Shown here: positions 51 through 5,935 of the stretch, in pieces
Position numbering within the stretch: the first letter of the stretch is position 1
Layout of the letters: each line of letters begins with the position of its first letter
UHGV virus genome: UHGV-1796775
Strand: one strand, 5' to 3'
Source: a virus
DNA length: 12,658 nucleotides
Program-made: the position numbers and the translations under genes
Notes under the pieces: generated by a model
The model's database searches: none
What the model saw: only the letters and a program-made list of their open reading frames with translations
What the model was told of the DNA's origin: nothing

Positions 51-1457
51 TCAGTATGCATAGCGAACGGCTGAGAGAACGTCGTCGTTAAGCTTGACGA
101 TCTTCCCGTTTTCATCACGGTGATAGAGGCGGAACTCCTCAAAGAATGGCTCACAGGTGTTGAATACTTTGAAGCGACCATCGAGCATCATGTCGCGCAA
201 TTCAGTGATGCCAGGCTCAACAGCATTACCGCCATCAGGCCATGTCGCATGCTCCTGTAACATCATAAAACCAGCATCTGCATACTGCCCTTTGAGCTGC
301 TCACCGCCGCCCTTCTCGTGCTGGTTTCCGTCATGAGGCCATGCGGTTGGCACTTTATGCGCCCATGATTTAACAGCTCCCCACGCCTGAACGGCTGTTT
401 TTTCTTTCGCCTTCCACACGCGTGAAACGTAGATTGTGTCTGCGTCCTTATCCCACCAAAGCTGAACCTGCGCCTGTGGGTGATCCCATCCGAAATCCAT
501 CCCGCCAATTACGTAGAAGTGATCAGGACACTCGAACGGCTGACACTTAATCGTCTCTTCCGGTATCTGGAAGATTCGACCACTACCCATCGTAGGAATG
601 CCGCGAGCACGCGCCTCTCTCTCATGCTCGGGATAGGATGCGATGATTTGCTCTTTCTGCTCGTCGGTGTAGTGCTCTGCGTCATAGATGGTCATGTTGA
701 CCACTTTCTGCGACTTGCTGGGATTCTTCAGGAACTTGGTAACAACGTCAGACATCCCCATCAGCGGGGTAAACGTCAGAATTGAGAATTGCCCGTATTT
801 GTTGGTACGGGTAAGACCTTCGCCATAAATGCTGTATGGTGGCTCTTCGTCAAACCACACGCCGTGGATTGTGTCACCCTGCCAGCGAGCACGGCCTTGC
901 GAGTATGGCTTGAAGTAGCAGATTGAAATGCCATCTTCAACGCCATCAGCCGTGTGATGCTTAACCAGAAGATGATCAACAAGGTTCGGAAAGAAAGGAG
1001 ACTTCTTCCAGCTAATGATGTCTTCTTTCGGTATGGAACCGTAGCCAGGCTCATCATTCTCTTCGATACGACCGCACAGGATGCGTTGAGTCGTTTTGGT
1101 TACAGTCTCGTTTGTCTCGCCACCAATCCAGAAGACAACAGGCTCATAGAAACGCTTACCTTTCCACTCACCGCCATATTTACCATCAGCAGGATAGCCT
1201 TTTGTGCCCGGGTAACGCCCTGTAAGGTGAAACGCGACTTCAGCAGCACCAGTAAATGACTTACCAAGCTGGTTACCAGCCATAAAACATCGCTCTGGAT
1301 AGTCATGTCCGGCGTCGATGAACTCACGCTGTTTGCTGTATGGCGTAAATTCATATAGCAGGTGTGTGTTCCGGTAGTTCTCTTCTTCTTCGAGTAGCTC
1401 GAGCAATTCGATTTGCTCTTCGTCGCTCAGGTTATCAAGAATCGCGTCCAGTTCCAC
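51..1457 (-). CDS. terL: Terminase large subunit (P22/Sf6-like), 468 aa
   Basis: Long minus-strand ORF. GTG start at 1457, with AAGGAG about 10 nt upstream, overlaps the terS 3' end by 23 nt. Placement directly after terS fits a packaging module; family assignment is by recollection only. Stop at 51-53. Confidence 0.85.
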
Positions 1458-1923
1458 GGTTGAATAGCTCCTTGATACGAGAGCGTCGCTTATCGCGATC
1501 TCCCTTATCAGGTGTCACGTCTTCAACTTGCGACTGCTCTTTGAGGCCCAAATCACGGGCGATGATGTTAGCGTTGAGAAGGTCAGCGGCTGCGCCAGAG
1601 AATTTCTGGTCGTAGATGATGTCTTCCGCTCGTGATGTGACGTCAGAAAAACCTTCCATTGACCGGAAGGTTCCCCATGTTTGCCTGGTGATATCAAGGA
1701 AGGTACACAATCCTGAAATAGTCATGGCTCGCATCTTAGGGACATTAGCCTTAATTATTTCTCCCTGATATGAAAATACCTTACCCTCCCATAGCGGGTT
1801 ATCATCAGCCCACTCGAAGTATTCACAACAAGCAGCCCACAGCGCCTCAGGCGATTCGAATTTAGGATTTCGCCCATGACTACTGCGGGCCTCCCAAAAT
1901 CGGTTGCCCTTTGGTGCTGCCAT
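1435..1923 (-). CDS. terS: Terminase small subunit (P22 gp3-like), 162 aa
   Basis: ORF track 1435..1929; I prefer the ATG at 1923 ([17 protein letters not shown]...), which has better spacing from a GTGAG Shine-Dalgarno than the ATG at 1929. The N-terminal sequence is characteristic of P22-type small terminases from memory. Confidence 0.8.
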
Positions 1924-1958
1924 ATTCATCTCACTTATTTGTTATTTCAGGTTGAGCA

Positions 1959-2201
1959 TCATGCTCCGGTAGTGAACAGGTCTAACGCTTCCTTCGATTT
2001 ACGCACCGCTTCGATAGTTCGGGTCGTGATATCTGAATTAGCGCCGCCTGACTGGAAGTGAATTTTGAATAGCTCAAGCTTCAGCTCGTCAGTGCCAATG
2101 AACTGAAATGCCTCCTCTGCGGCTGCGTTCTGGTTCATGACCAGTTTGTAAATCTCTAACTGGAATTTCTGTTCTTCAGTCATGGGAATAATCTCTGCCA
2201 T
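1959..2201 (-). CDS. Hypothetical protein, 80 aa
   Basis: Minus-strand ORF with ATG at 2201 and an alternative ATG at 2183. No convincing RBS for the first ATG. It sits between the lysis and packaging modules; no recognisable motif. Confidence 0.5.
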   Translation of the reverse strand: MAEIIPMTEEQKFQLEIYKLVMNQNAAAEEAFQFIGTDELKLELFKIHFQSGGANSDITTRTIEAVRKSKEALDLFTTGA

Positions 2202-2304
2202 TGTTGGCTACATTTATCCGTTAAAAGGGATATCAGTTAAGTTATCCCGTGTAGGGTATAAGCCATTATCAAAGCCACTCTGTAGGGAATGGCTTTTGTA
2301 ATAA

Positions 2305-2685
2305 CTACTGTTCGCTTAGCTTCTGCTTCAGCAAGTAACCTTCTAGCATCCAGATTTTGTTTACAGCATTTTGCCGGGCAATCTTCCGACCAATTTCTGC
2401 ATCAAAATTTTCCGGACTTGCACAGGCACTCTCTCCGGTGACGGTGAAGCCATTCTTCAGCACCAGTACGCAGAAAGTGAGCAACTTCAATGGCGATAAA
2501 TCACGATCGCCTTCTTCTGGTTTTTCTCTGCCACAATATTCGTTGCTGGAAATGGCACCATTACGTCCATCATAAGCAGTAAAGTAATGCTCGCTTTTAA
2601 TCACGTCTTCGATGTGCTGCGGGGTGATTCGCGGTGCCGTTTTTCCTTTCTCAACGATTTCTTTTTCGATTTGCTGGTCGTTCAT
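2305..2685 (-). CDS. Hypothetical phage protein, 126 aa
   Basis: Minus-strand ORF with ATG at 2685 and an AGGGT Shine-Dalgarno about 8 nt upstream. Its stop codon is immediately followed by a conserved hairpin element. Function unknown. Confidence 0.6.
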   Translation of the reverse strand: MNDQQIEKEIVEKGKTAPRITPQHIEDVIKSEHYFTAYDGRNGAISSNEYCGREKPEEGDRDLSPLKLLTFCVLVLKNGFTVTGESACASPENFDAEIGRKIARQNAVNKIWMLEGYLLKQKLSEQ

Positions 2686-2911
2686 AATTATGACCCTGTG
2701 GAGTGGTTGCTTGATTAGGATGTCTTTCCATCAGTCCGCCACCACAAAGAATCTTTTTTGCCATAAGGCAGGAGGTTCATCTTTCAGTGGCTGCCAGTGT
2801 TATTTCCCCACTTACTGGCTTGGGTTGTTTCGTGGTACTGCCGTTAACTGGTTACCCAGAATAAATTCCGGTTTCATTATCAAGCCCACCCGTAGATAGG
2901 CTTTGTAATGG

Positions 2912-3199
2912 CTACTTCTTCAGAAATGATTCGATGAACTCACGCCGGGGATGACGATAGTTCAGAATATCTTCTGGCATCCTCATAAAGCGGTTGTTGC
3001 CGTCTTTGGCAGTAACAAAACAGCTGTGAACTCCGCAGACATCCGTTTTGATTGTGTCGCTATACTCAAAAAGCAACTGAGCCATCTTCTCTTGCCATTC
3101 TGGCGGCATAGCCTCCATGAATACTCGCGGCATCACGCAGAACGGCGCATGCGTAAGACCAAACCACAGTTGCAGGTCTTTACGATATTCTTCATCCAT
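2912..3199 (-). CDS. Hypothetical protein, 95 aa
   Basis: Minus-strand ORF with ATG at 3199 and an AAGGT Shine-Dalgarno about 7 nt upstream. It is preceded by an intrinsic-terminator-like hairpin and followed by a conserved hairpin element. No recognisable motif. Confidence 0.55.
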   Translation of the reverse strand: MDEEYRKDLQLWFGLTHAPFCVMPRVFMEAMPPEWQEKMAQLLFEYSDTIKTDVCGVHSCFVTAKDGNNRFMRMPEDILNYRHPRREFIESFLKK

Positions 3200-3217
3200 C
3201 GTCTTTACCTTTGTTGC

Positions 3218-3242
3218 AATAAAAATCCCCGCAAATGCGAGG
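3218..3242 (-). terminator. Intrinsic terminator-like hairpin downstream of Rz
   Basis: Minus-strand RNA CCUCGC-AUUU-GCGGGG followed by AUUUUUAUU: a 6-bp GC-rich stem, 4-nt loop and U-tract, lying 19 nt upstream of the 95-aa ORF start. Confidence 0.5.
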
Positions 3243-3417
3243 CTAAATCCTGGTATTTGTAATGACTGGCTCTTATCTCAACGCAGCCCCTTACCGCGCG
3301 CCAGATGCTCAATATCAAGCATCAGCAATGAGATGTTTAATCTGGATTCACTCCAGAAGTGATCACCACCCTGTCTACAGAGCCAGATGTGAAGGATGAT
3401 GAGTAAAATTATCGCTA

Positions 3418-3855
3418 TCATCGAAGGCATTGCGTCCTGATGTATTCCTGCAGGTAGTTAACCTGCGCGGTTATCCTGTCGATTCCACTTCGGAGACGGT
3501 AATAATTGAGTTCAGCATCTGCTGTAAGTCCTGGACTTTCTCCATCGCCCATGCCGCTGGCTCCGGTCGTTGACTTTGCACAGGTGGCGGCGACTTGCAG
3601 GCGCTTACGCCCAGCAGAAACATCAGCACGGAGACTTTCGATAGTCGCGTTAGCATCAGCAAGCTCCTTTGTATATCTGGCGTCGAGTTCTGCTACATCA
3701 CGTTGACGCTTCTGCATGTCAGCGATTGTGGATGTGGCCTTATCGCGCTGCTCTTTGTAGGCGATGGCGTTATCACGGTAATGATTAACCGCCCATGACA
3801 GACAGACGATGATGCAGATAACCAGAGCGGAGATAATCGCGGTGACTCTGCTCAT
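3418..3855 (-). CDS. Rz: Rz i-spanin (inner-membrane spanin subunit), 145 aa
   Basis: ATG at 3855 overlaps the R stop (ATGA). N-terminal TM segment [23 protein letters not shown] matches lambda Rz from memory; the rest is homologous but diverged. Rz1 is embedded in the +1 frame. Confidence 0.85.
3471..3656 (-). CDS. Rz1: Rz1 o-spanin (outer-membrane lipoprotein), 61 aa
   Basis: Embedded inside Rz in another frame. ATG at 3656 with AAGGAG 7 nt upstream (the ORF track's 3662 start is a TTG). Signal peptide with lipobox VSAC followed by a proline-rich stretch, as expected for Rz1. Confidence 0.75.
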
Positions 3856-4328
3856 ACCTCAATCTCTCTGACCGTTCCACCCGCTTCTTTGAATTTTGCA
3901 ATCAGGCTGTCAGCCTTATGCTCGAACTGACCATAACCAGCGCCAGGCAGTGAAGCCCAGATATTGCTGCAACGGTCGATAGCCTGACGAATATCACCGC
4001 GATCAATCATCGGCAAAGCGCCACGCTCCTTAATCTGCTGCAATGCAACAGCATCCTGGCTTTTAGGAGAGAAGTCTTTCAGGCCAAGCTGCTTACGATA
4101 GGCATCCCACCAACGGGAAAGAAGCTGGTAACGCCCGGCGGCTGTTGATTTGAGTTTTGGGTTTAGCGTGACAAGTTTGCGAGGGTGATCAGAGTAATCA
4201 GTGAATAGCTCTCCGCCTACAATGACGTCATAACCATGATTTCTGGTTTTCTGTCGTCCGTTATCAGTCCCCTCTGACCACGCCAGCATATCGAGGAACG
4301 CCTTACGTTGATTATTGATTTCCACCAT
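3852..4328 (-). CDS. R: Endolysin R (lambda-type lytic transglycosylase), 158 aa
   Basis: Translation [39 protein letters not shown]... matches lambda R from memory nearly residue for residue. Start overlaps the S 3' end. Confidence 0.93.
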
Positions 4329-4635
4329 CTTCTACTCCGGCTTTTTTAGCAGCGAAGCGTTTGATAAGCGAACCAATCGAGTCAGTACCGATGTAGCCGA
4401 TGAACACGCTCGTTATATAAGCGAGATTGCTACTTAGTCCGGCGAAGTCGAGAAGATCACGAATGAACCAGGCGATAATGGCGCACATCGTTGCGTCGAT
4501 TACTGTTTTTGTAAACGCACCGCCATTATATCTGCCGCGAAGGTACGCCATTGCAAACGCAAGGATTGCCCCGATGCCTTGTTCCTTTGCCGCAAGAATG
4601 GCGGCTAACAGGTCATGTTTTTCTGGCATCTTCAT
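4312..4635 (-). CDS. S: Holin S (class I; dual-start holin/antiholin), 107 aa
   Basis: Translation [39 protein letters not shown]... is essentially lambda S. The Met1-Lys2-Met3 dual start (ATG at 4635 and 4629) gives S107 antiholin and S105 holin. Confidence 0.93.
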
Positions 4636-5041: not shown

Positions 5042-5098
5042 AAAAAATCCCGAAACCGTTATGCAGGCTCTAACTATTACCTGCGAACTGTTTCGGGA
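5042..5098 (-). terminator. tR' late terminator
   Basis: Long hairpin with arms at 5048-5056 and 5090-5098 (UCCCGAAAC / GUUUCGGGA) followed on the minus-strand RNA by a U6 tract (plus-strand A-run 5042-5047). Confidence 0.7.
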
Positions 5099-5233
5099 TT
5101 GCATTTTGCAGACCTCTCTGCCTGCGATGGTTGGAGTTCCAGACGATACGTCGAAGTGACCAACTAGGCGGAATCGGTAGTAAGCGCCGCCTCTTTTCAT
5201 CTCACTACCACAACGAGCGAATTAACCCATCGT
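5042..5233 (-). ncRNA. Lambda-type 6S late leader RNA (pR' transcript terminated at tR')
   Basis: Minus-strand sequence from ACGATGGGTTAATTCGCTCG... to ...GCATAACGGTTTCGGGATTTTTTAT matches the lambda pR'-tR' transcript as I remember it. End coordinates are approximate. Confidence 0.7.
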
Positions 5234-5240
5234 TGAGTCA

Positions 5241-5269
5241 AATTTACCCAATTTTATTCAATAAGTCAA
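5241..5269 (-). promoter_or_regulatory. Late promoter pR' with overlapping Q-utilisation (qut) region
   Basis: On the minus strand, TTGACT (-35, plus 5264-5269), a 17-bp spacer, then TAAATT (-10, plus 5241-5246). The arrangement matches lambda pR' from memory; it lies just downstream of Q. Confidence 0.7.
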
Positions 5270-5311: not shown

Positions 5312-5935
5312 CTAACGTGTGACCGCATTCAAAATGTTGTCTGCGATTGACTCTTCTTTGTGGCATTGCACCACCAGAGCGTCATACAGCGGCTTAACAG
5401 TGCGTGACCAGGTGGGTTGGGTAAGGTTTGGGATTAGCATCGTCACAGCGCGATATGCTGCGCTTGCTGGCATCCTTGAATAGCCGACGCCTTTGCATCT
5501 TCCGCACTCTTTCTCGACAACTCTCCCCCACAGCTCTGTTTTGGCAATATCAACCGCACGGCCTGTACCGTGGCAATCTCTGCATCTTGCCCCCGGCGTC
5601 GCGGCACTACGGCAATAATCCGCATAAGCGAATGTTGCGAGCACTTGCAGTACCTTTGCCTTAGTATTTCCTTCAAGCTTTGCCACACCACGGTATTTCC
5701 CCGATACCTTGTGTGCAAATTGCATCAGATAGTTGATAGCCTTTTGTTTGTCGTTCTGGCTGAGTTCGTGCTTACCGCAGAATGCAGCCATACCGAATCC
5801 GGCTTGTGATTGCGCCATCCCCATAGCAGCCATCACATCAGTACCGGAAAGAGAGTCAGAAGCCGTGGCCCGTGGTGAGTCGCTCATCATCGGGCTTTTT
5901 GGCGAATGAAATTTAGCTACGCTTTCGAGTCTCAT
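5312..5935 (-). CDS. Q: Late-gene antiterminator Q (lambda-type), 207 aa
   Basis: Translation [27 protein letters not shown]...[12 protein letters not shown]...CGRCKGVGY is lambda Q with its zinc-binding Cys cluster. ATG at 5935 overlaps the NinI stop (ATGA). Confidence 0.93.

Follow-up and report, generated by a model that had tools for sequence, protein, structure and literature searches.

We analysed a stretch of 12,658 nucleotides from the virus genome UHGV-1796775 (the window), and specifically a cluster of small genes lying between the lysis gene Rz and the small terminase gene terS. A previous, sequence-only reading had placed three same-strand open reading frames (ORFs) there, and we confirmed their coordinates and their lengths of 80, 126 and 95 amino acids (ORF80, ORF126 and ORF95; Table 1). 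Their position between Rz and terS is also correct, given the Pfam matches of the flanking genes (PF03245 and PF16677). The gaps of 218, 226 and 103 bp that had been noted next to these ORFs have the proper sizes, but the 218-bp gap is not empty: it contains a 50-amino-acid ORF. On the coding strand, Rz is followed by this additional ORF, which resembles gene 65 of phage Sf6, then by a half-site and a terminator-like hairpin, ORF95, hairpin A, a leader and ORF126. Downstream of ORF126 come hairpin B, a weak GGGAUA hairpin, ORF80 and terS. All three genes are conserved elsewhere, and are therefore real genes. We consider it likely that the region from 1959 to 3430 is a hypervariable accessory-gene slot that P22-like (Lederbergvirus) and lambdoid phages have between their lysis cassette and terminase genes.

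A slot with exchangeable cargo

The DNA at 1900–3450 is about 97% identical, in a piecewise fashion, to that of Lederbergvirus phages (Sf6, HK620, Huey, HF4s, CUS-3 and others), and no phage record was found that spans 80% of this interval. Between the window and Huey, the sequence is nearly the same from Rz through the gp65-like ORF to the terminator; unrelated genes come next, and the two meet again precisely at the stop codon and hairpin A (element A). The cargo that replaces ORF95 in Huey encodes a Tad2-like anti-Thoeris sponge (PF11195, E = 1.7e-24). In Sf6, element A directly follows gp65, and the ORF95 cassette is absent.

Our survey of this slot covers 72 IMG/VR loci whose Orf80 protein is 99–100% identical. 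The interval from Rz to Orf80 ranges from 308 to 1917 bp in these loci (median 1080) and exhibits about 57 architectures. Acb4 genes, to whose family ORF126 belongs, are present in 16 loci as two alleles, Tad2-like genes in four and ORF95 in one, while the remaining cargo consists of Rha or KilA-N proteins, GIY-YIG-like proteins and unknown small proteins. The architectures nonetheless share a set of modules, namely the half-site with the terminator, the junction hairpin, the leader of roughly 190 nt and the GGGAUA hairpin. The slot of P22 itself has the terminator, the leader and one variant of the hairpin. Of 5426 complete E. coli genomes, 2826 contain parts of the region. Matches over at least 80% of it occur in six of these genomes and matches over at least 90% in three, and the combination of ORF95 with Acb4 is rare among them.

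The cargos are thus exchanged combinatorially between otherwise nearly identical phages, with breakpoints at conserved junction modules. The previous suggestion that the cluster is inserted cargo, and not a set of core late genes, is borne out by the comparisons with Sf6 and Huey, by the variability of the 72 loci and by the reported dispensability of P22 orf80. The proposed comparison of synteny with P22-like and lambdoid phages likewise reveals a variable cluster. By contrast, the idea that the genes might be regulatory found no support, as we detected no DNA-binding domain in ORF80, ORF126 or ORF95, although Rha or KilA-N proteins do fill the same slot in other phages.

Table 1. Positions of genes, RNA elements and signals in the window
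Feature	Position	Strand	Basis or remark
Large terminase	51–1457	-	Gene order
terS, P22 gp3-type small terminase	1435–1929	-	PF16677, E = 8.6e-31
ORF80, 80 aa	1959–2201	-	DUF2560; PF10834, 147.7 bits vs cut-off of 25
hpG, weak GGGAUA...UAUCCC hairpin, then UUUU	2223–2248	-	Inverted repeat I1; just upstream of ORF80
Element B, outer arms as in element A, different 10-bp inner stem	2261–2306	-	Begins at ORF126 stop codon
ORF126, 126 aa	2305–2685	-	PF13876 (Gp49/Sf6 gene 66, Phage_gp49_66), Acb4 family
LDR, conserved non-coding leader, ~190 nt	2686–2871 (core ~2693–2863)	-	Between element A and ORF126 start
Element A, CAUUA-CA-(9-bp stem, 4-nt loop)-GA-UAAUG	2872–2913	-	Begins at ORF95 stop codon
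ORF95, 95 aa	2912–3199	-	Cargo in slot position 1; phrog_3527
Intrinsic-terminator-like hairpin, CCUCGCAUUUGCGGGG + AUUUUUAUU	3217–3242	-	Consensus terminator scan; after lysis cassette
Half-site, CATTACAAA	3256–3264	-	5' arm of junction hairpin without partner
gp65-like ORF, 50 aa	3278–3430	-	Homologue of Sf6 gene 65; RefSeq WP_001139680.1
Rz, with embedded Rz1	3418–3855	-	PF03245, E = 1.3e-35
Endolysin R	3852–4328	-	Gene order
Holin S	4312–4635	-	Pfam match
tR'-like terminator with GGTTTCGGGATTTTTTAT	about 5050–5075	-	Comes after promoter-like site at 5269–5241
Promoter-like site, TTGACT-17-TAAATT	5241–5269	-	Promoter scan; directly downstream of Q
Q, lambda-type	5312–5935	-	Comes after nin-region genes in transcription order

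ORF126 belongs to the Acb4 family of anti-CBASS sponges

It had seemed that none of the three genes could be assigned to a known family. In fact, two of them can (ORF126 to PF13876/Acb4 and ORF80 to DUF2560/P22 Orf80), and RefSeq already carries names for both. ORF126 matches PF13876 with 120.8 bits, as compared to a cut-off of 27 (E = 3.4e-35), and the match extends over residues 20–123 and the full 82 positions of the profile. PF13876 corresponds to Acb4, a family of sponges for the signals of the cyclic oligonucleotide-based antiphage signalling system (CBASS), with 1331 homologues. The Acb4 protein of Bacillus phage SPO1 is a homotetramer sequestering four 3'3'-cGAMP molecules and defeating CBASS. 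All eight homologues that were assayed bind 3'3'-cGAMP and none binds cGG, while those from phages of Gram-negative hosts have a broader specificity that extends to 3'3'-cAA (Chang et al., bioRxiv 10.1101/2024.12.30.630793). The exact sequence of ORF126 is an entry in Table S3 of that study (A0A0H2Z1H7), as is Sf6 gp66 (Q716B1).

The solved structure of SPO1 Acb4 (PDB 9e4w) is matched by the single ORF126 sequence with an E-value of 0.007, and by a profile of 10 family members including ORF126 with an E-value of 7.4e-12 (48.5 bits, chain residues 14–87). In HMMER alignments, ORF126 keeps the ENF-x-EIGR core and, of the ten ligand contacts named for SPO1 Acb4, the residues F48, F62 and I66. No model in PADLOC (E ≤ 0.01) or NCBIfam matches the protein. 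Judging from the profile matches and this listing, ORF126 is a genuine Acb4-family protein and is predicted to be an anti-CBASS sponge for cyclic dinucleotides, although we infer the activity of ORF126 itself from that of its relatives.

The two Acb4 alleles in P22-like phages encode proteins of 126 and 118–124 amino acids that are about 75% identical. They differ almost solely in an inserted loop (positions 2485–2570, ORF126 residues ~40–67), which reads GRNGAISSNEYCGREKPEEGDRDLSPLK in one and GIRAANMGVGDSWTAHKSTD in the other. This concentration of differences points to a surface or ligand-gating segment under diversifying selection.

ORF95 is a mobile gene of a large phage family

We found no match to ORF95 in Pfam, NCBIfam, PADLOC (E ≤ 0.01) or PDB. 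Its PHROG matches all have unknown functions, and include phrog_3527. Close homologues form 43 clusters, and a profile search of 1.8 billion representative sequences yielded 1386 relatives at E ≤ 1e-3. Only positions 139–230 of phrog_3527 are matched, which could indicate a truncated gene. However, most close homologues are about 95 amino acids in length and have the same start, so ORF95 is not truncated. Many of the 1386 relatives are longer proteins that have the domain at their C-terminal end. Scanning 20 such proteins against Pfam gave one NlpC/P60 match, two sub-threshold matches and otherwise nothing, the precomputed Pfam annotation of 88 further relatives was empty, and in neither set did we find a fusion to a known sponge or anti-defence domain. 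Two relatives (P0072 and P0109) have the ORF95 domain at the C-terminus behind a stretch that includes an HExxH motif (LMHEFGHVLQDY). P0072 contains an NlpC/P60 fragment in addition, and a third relative (P0049) has two ORF95 domains in tandem. Such arrangements may mean that the domain is a protein-binding or targeting module.

A first structural model of ORF95, based on 35 close homologues, was unusable, with a predicted local distance difference test score (pLDDT) of 56.6. An alignment of 146 sequences was used instead, and led to an AlphaFold2 model with a pLDDT of 86 and a predicted template modelling score of 0.72. The predicted fold is mainly helical with a small beta-hairpin. This model has no structural neighbour in PDB, and sequence searches of PDB with ORF95 alone or with its profile retrieved nothing meaningful.

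Close homologues of ORF95 in prophages of Enterobacter, Yersinia and other bacteria are always located between the spanin gene and terS, and do so in combination with three different terminase types and differing lysis types. A homologue in a Vibrio phage also precedes terS. This placement suggested to us a packaging accessory, but distant relatives of ORF95 reside in early-region arrays of small genes, beside methyltransferases and Prim-Pol or beside RecT/YqaJ. The family is therefore not tied to packaging. Within the 72 P22-like loci ORF95 is present once, and it occurs in 28 of 50,697 phage records.

ORF95 is thus a real, conserved and mobile accessory gene. It is most likely a further host-interaction or counter-defence factor, and the position that it shares with the Tad2-like sponge gives weak support to this role. 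The shared position is not accompanied by sequence similarity to Tad2: BLASTP against the Tad2-like protein of Huey gave an E-value of 0.6, and there was no Pfam match. Sequence motifs of ORF95 or Orf80 do not occur in the supplementary data of the sponge screen by the Sorek lab, nor in those of the accessory-gene screen by Silas et al.

ORF80 anchors the slot next to the terminase

ORF80 is identical to P22 Orf80 at 79 of 80 positions (99%), and its other counterparts are Sf6 gp67 and HK620 HkbM. By this similarity, it is P22 Orf80, i.e., a DUF2560 protein, and forms the conserved right-hand anchor of the slot, adjoining terS on its upstream side. Neither ORF80 nor the DUF2560 profile has a meaningful sequence match in PDB, and no PADLOC (E ≤ 0.01) or NCBIfam model matches ORF80.

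The Shine-Dalgarno region in front of ORF80 (2202–2225, minus strand) reads AAATGTAGCCAACAATG in the window, whereas it is AAACGGAGCCAACAATG, or contains GGAG in a different form, in 78 of 79 other loci. Two substitutions destroy the GGAG, so ORF80 may be poorly translated in this phage.

The constancy of ORF80 is relevant to the possibility that the three genes are core late accessories for lysis timing or DNA packaging, rather than cargo for interactions with the host. The ORFs do sit between Rz and terS within the late operon. At least 574 viral contigs in IMG/VR have DUF2560 immediately upstream of terS or hkbN, its distant homologues likewise precede terS or HNH genes, and the close and Vibrio phage homologues of ORF95 are just upstream of terS. 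However, P22 orf80 was reported to be unnecessary for lytic growth or lysogeny. In addition, ORF95 and ORF126 come and go among phages with nearly identical flanks, the distant relatives of ORF95 are in early regions and not beside terminases, and the family of ORF126 has a demonstrated anti-CBASS function. We therefore regard a core late role of the three genes as very improbable.

A family of RNA hairpins at the junctions

Hairpins had also been noted in front of each gene, and their positions are correct. The folds of elements A and B are significant, whereas that of the terminator hairpin is unremarkable and that of the GGGATA hairpin is weak. Element A starts at the stop codon of ORF95 and element B at that of ORF126, so both are better seen as part of the 3' ends of these upstream genes than as leaders of the downstream ones. 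Element A has a folding energy of -18.3 kcal/mol (z = -3.85) and element B one of -20.6 kcal/mol (z = -5.7); in both cases, none of 200 shuffled sequences folds as well. Neither hairpin is followed by a U-tract, so they are not intrinsic terminators. Element B accompanies Acb4 almost always in other loci.

The two elements have the same outer arms and unrelated inner stems, and this pattern recurs. Among the fetched loci, 71 of 73 outer-arm matches enclose at least 9 consecutive inner pairs. A scan of IMG/VR for the 14 fixed bases gave 122 matches, of which 37 have at least 9 inner pairs, with more than a dozen unrelated stem sequences; the chance rate of so many inner pairs is about 1.5e-4 per arm match. 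The stop codon is mostly 0–6 nt upstream of the hairpin in the IMG/VR matches. An alignment of 30 sequences has a covariation score of 0.55, versus 0.23 for shuffled alignments (0 of 500 reach the score) and 0.05–0.13 for slid controls, in a count whose hairpin variants were pre-selected for inner-stem pairing. The flank pair 3–44 is outside this selection, and is paired in 23 of the 30 sequences, by six different types of pair. The stems are rich in G-U pairs, e.g., in 20 of 30 sequences at columns 18–29.

A covariance model finds exactly two matches in the window, on the minus strand only: element A with 57.6 bits (E = 3e-14) and element B with 56.3 bits (E = 8e-14), versus about 8 bits on the opposite strand. 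In the whole Sf6 genome there are two matches, both in the slot, and P22 has one and HK620 two. Matches are restricted to the coding strand and the slot in the window and in all three of these phages. Nothing in the whole window reaches the gathering score of an Rfam family, and nothing in 1900–3460 matches one even at E ≤ 1; a full-text literature search for the hairpin sequences returned only unrelated primers. We also considered the Sf6 "boundary sequences" (bsq), whose positions do not coincide with elements A and B. Hairpins A and B thus belong to a strand-specific, covarying RNA hairpin family with the form CATTACA-stem-GATAATG. They are conserved junction modules common to many cargo combinations, rather than regulatory sites of individual genes. 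The CAUUACA/GAUAAUG arms are invariant, which suggests that a specific factor recognises them.

In other loci, the hairpin family occurs 2–70 nt upstream of an HNH endonuclease gene (IMG/VR loci L141, L194 and L206) or of terS (L158, L169 and L189), and it also follows Rha, spanin and distant DUF2560 genes (L100 and L173 are among the loci noted). Since it is found across other enterobacterial temperate phages, the hairpin is a general pre-terminase feature and not one of P22-like phages only.

Elements A and B might instead act on DNA, as attC-like linker or recombination sites for the exchange of cassettes. Homology between phages does break and resume exactly at these elements. Moreover, the half-site and the start of element A constitute a 9-bp direct repeat (CATTACAAA) that brackets the terminator and ORF95 cassette relative to Sf6, and every cargo ORF has a hairpin at its 3' end whose outer arms are conserved and whose inner stem is variable. 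On the other hand, G-U pairs become A-C mismatches on the opposite strand, and the covariance model strongly distinguishes the strands. There is no dedicated recombinase nearby, and homologous recombination at any conserved junction of 40–190 bp would yield the same mosaic. The outer arms are not known to resemble the R boxes of attC sites, which also counts against this explanation. Overall, a DNA site is unlikely. Based on the strand asymmetry and the G-U pairs, we favour a structure that acts in the late mRNA.

Other conserved elements of the slot

The gp65-like ORF overlaps the end of Rz by 13 nt and has a hydrophobic N-terminus; Sf6p65 and Huey_CDS0063 occupy the same place. It is found in 36 of the 72 P22-like loci at 90–100% identity, is absent from P22, and has no Pfam, NCBIfam or PADLOC match. 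It could encode a small membrane protein as an adjunct to the lysis cassette.

The half-site and the terminator recur in this order across many architectures. The terminator scan matches 3242–3227 on the minus strand, followed by ATTTTTATTG. With a 6-bp stem including 5 GC pairs, a 4-nt loop and a AUUUUUAUU tail, the hairpin has the features of a predicted intrinsic terminator, while its folding energy is unremarkable (z = -1.0). The ribosome-binding region of ORF95, AAAGGUAAAGACG-AUG, comes after it. The terminator is kept ahead of many different cargos in P22-like loci, including in P22, and is also upstream of the ORF95 homologues in Enterobacter and Yersinia prophages.

We found 60 copies of the leader (LDR) in the fetched loci, including loci that lack Acb4, and it is also present in P22. 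It does not appear to encode a small protein, as two micro-ORFs exhibit no codon-position bias (8/5/7 and 10/10/10 substitutions at the three positions), nor does it appear to be a structured RNA, as its fold is not significant (z = -0.88). It has no Rfam match and no promoter-like site. The hpG hairpin (z = -1.35) is upstream of DUF2560 in most architectures.

Transcription and proposed function of the cluster

According to the ORF list and a Pfam scan, every gene in the window is on the minus strand. The order of transcription is nin genes, Q, S, R, Rz, the studied region, terS and the large terminase gene. On this strand, a scan for consensus sigma-70 promoters found a single promoter-like site, at 5269–5241 ahead of the cluster, and none within 1959–3430. 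This site and the GGTTTCGGGATTTTTTAT terminator make up what we take to be a lambda pR'/tR' arrangement. The late promoter region (5050–5269) thus looks lambda-type, with pR', a 6S-like leader and tR', and its union with a P22-type terminase and accessory genes like those of Sf6 and HK620 is typical of lambdoid mosaics. There are no tRNA genes after tR' in the window, whereas Sf6 has them.

Given that the cluster lacks a promoter-like site, its transcription from pR' is probable. The genes would be read within the Q-antiterminated late operon, through the terminator that follows the lysis cassette, and the cluster thus probably rides the late transcript. Under this model, ORF126 would accumulate together with the late proteins, soak up the cyclic dinucleotides of CBASS and so protect the phage. 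ORF95 would, as our best guess, act in counter-defence or another interaction with the host, and Orf80 would be a conserved but dispensable component of the slot. At the RNA level, the junction hairpins could be structures for 3' stabilisation or processing, set as punctuation into the polycistronic message, as the analogy with T7 suggests, and might double as short conserved joints for recombination-driven exchange of cassettes.

The genes could alternatively be classical morons, or a prophage module for defence or lysogenic conversion that is expressed from the repressed prophage to the benefit of the host. The P22 slot holds rha, orf25, pid and orf80, of which orf25 and orf80 were reported to be dispensable and pid is a moron that alters expression of the host's dgo genes. 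The terminator-like hairpin upstream of ORF95 could insulate an independent unit, and the window is prophage-like, with parts of the region in half of the complete E. coli genomes. However, the coding strand has no sigma-70-like promoter within 1959–3430, and the three genes have the direction of the late operon, which pid opposes. No PADLOC defence model matches any of the four ORFs (E ≤ 0.01), and a counter-defence sponge such as ORF126 would benefit the phage rather than its host. No U-tract follows hairpin A or B, so neither is a moron terminator, and the sole terminator-like site is upstream of ORF95, not downstream. The cluster therefore does not have the parts that define a classical moron in the sense of Juhala and Hendrix, i.e., a sigma-70 promoter upstream and a factor-independent terminator downstream. 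We judge this explanation to be improbable.

Some observations weigh against our preferred interpretation of a late-expressed slot for accessory genes. Late expression is supported solely by the lack of consensus sigma-70 sites, and weak or non-canonical promoters would be missed by the scan; indeed, the pid cargo in the same slot of P22 has its own weak promoter. ORF126 is identical to SPO1 Acb4 at only 3 of about 10 ligand contacts, with K36, E49, V56, Y57, N63, T70 and K81 replaced, and carries an allele-dependent insertion of about 22 residues. The position of ORF95 is occupied more often by Rha or KilA-N DNA-binding proteins than by sponges, which weakens the counter-defence reading of ORF95. 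Finally, given the pre-selection of hairpin variants, the independent evidence for the hairpins is limited to the share of arm matches that are paired, the pairs in the flanks and the asymmetry between the strands. Nonetheless, none of the core late, moron or defence, and DNA-site explanations fits the data as well as an accessory-gene slot does.

A bolder proposal has two parts that would both have to hold: that ORF95 founds a new counter-defence family, without a relative of solved fold, interchangeable with Tad2 and distributed over early regions in many unrelated phages, and that the hairpins are an undescribed class of RNA at cassette 3' ends, in the pre-terminase region of enterobacterial temperate phages, that couples mRNA processing or stability to cassette mobility. 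We view this combination as speculative and rather doubtful.

Significance and comparison with known systems

The variable slot, DUF2560 and Acb4 were already known, the last with a published function and a listing of the exact ORF126 sequence. The ORF95 family and the junction hairpin are modestly novel. Current understanding is thus not overturned, as the main gene with an assignable function is already catalogued. Rather, the region shows in compact form how temperate phages that infect E. coli, Shigella and Salmonella swap counter-defence genes (Acb4, Tad2 and unknown ones) in and out of one fixed late-operon slot. Since conserved junction modules define this slot, it could be used as a bioinformatic trap for genes involved in anti-defence or host interactions. 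ORF95, with its 1386 representatives and neither a Pfam model nor a structural neighbour, and the widespread DUF2560 are obvious candidates. The junction hairpin could explain how promoterless cassettes are expressed or stabilised in a long antiterminated transcript.

Intercistronic RNase III hairpins in T7 early mRNA and 3' stabiliser hairpins of the repetitive extragenic palindromic (REP) type resemble elements A and B by analogy only. Like them, the junction hairpins appear to be two-tiered with an internal loop, located between cistrons after stop codons and devoid of a U-tract. However, they share no sequence relationship with these hairpins, and belong to no Rfam family.

As compared to SPO1 Acb4, which has 96 amino acids, ORF126 is longer, with an N-terminal extension and the allele-variable insertion, which is ahead of the first beta-strand. 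The Tad2-like gene (PF11195/DUF2829) of Huey and 4 of the 72 loci occupies exactly the position of ORF95, and its cassette shares with that of ORF95 the upstream terminator, the downstream hairpin and the pairing with Acb4. The proteins differ in that ORF95 has no sequence similarity to Tad2 and a mainly helical predicted fold that lacks a PDB neighbour. ORF80 has the same length as P22 Orf80, Sf6 gp67 and HK620 HkbM, is in the same place directly upstream of terS or hkbN, and exhibits no structural difference from them; only its Shine-Dalgarno sequence deviates (GTAG versus GGAG).

The slot as a whole resembles the region from Rz to gene 3 in P22 and genes 65–68 of Sf6, with the same flanks, the same junction modules and interchangeable, non-essential cargo. 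In contrast to pid in P22, the cargos in the window have the orientation of the late operon and lack a promoter-like site. This is the post-lysis region for morons or accessory genes in lambdoid phages, and it may be compared with the "accessory regions" of Silas et al. (bioRxiv 10.1101/2023.04.06.535777).

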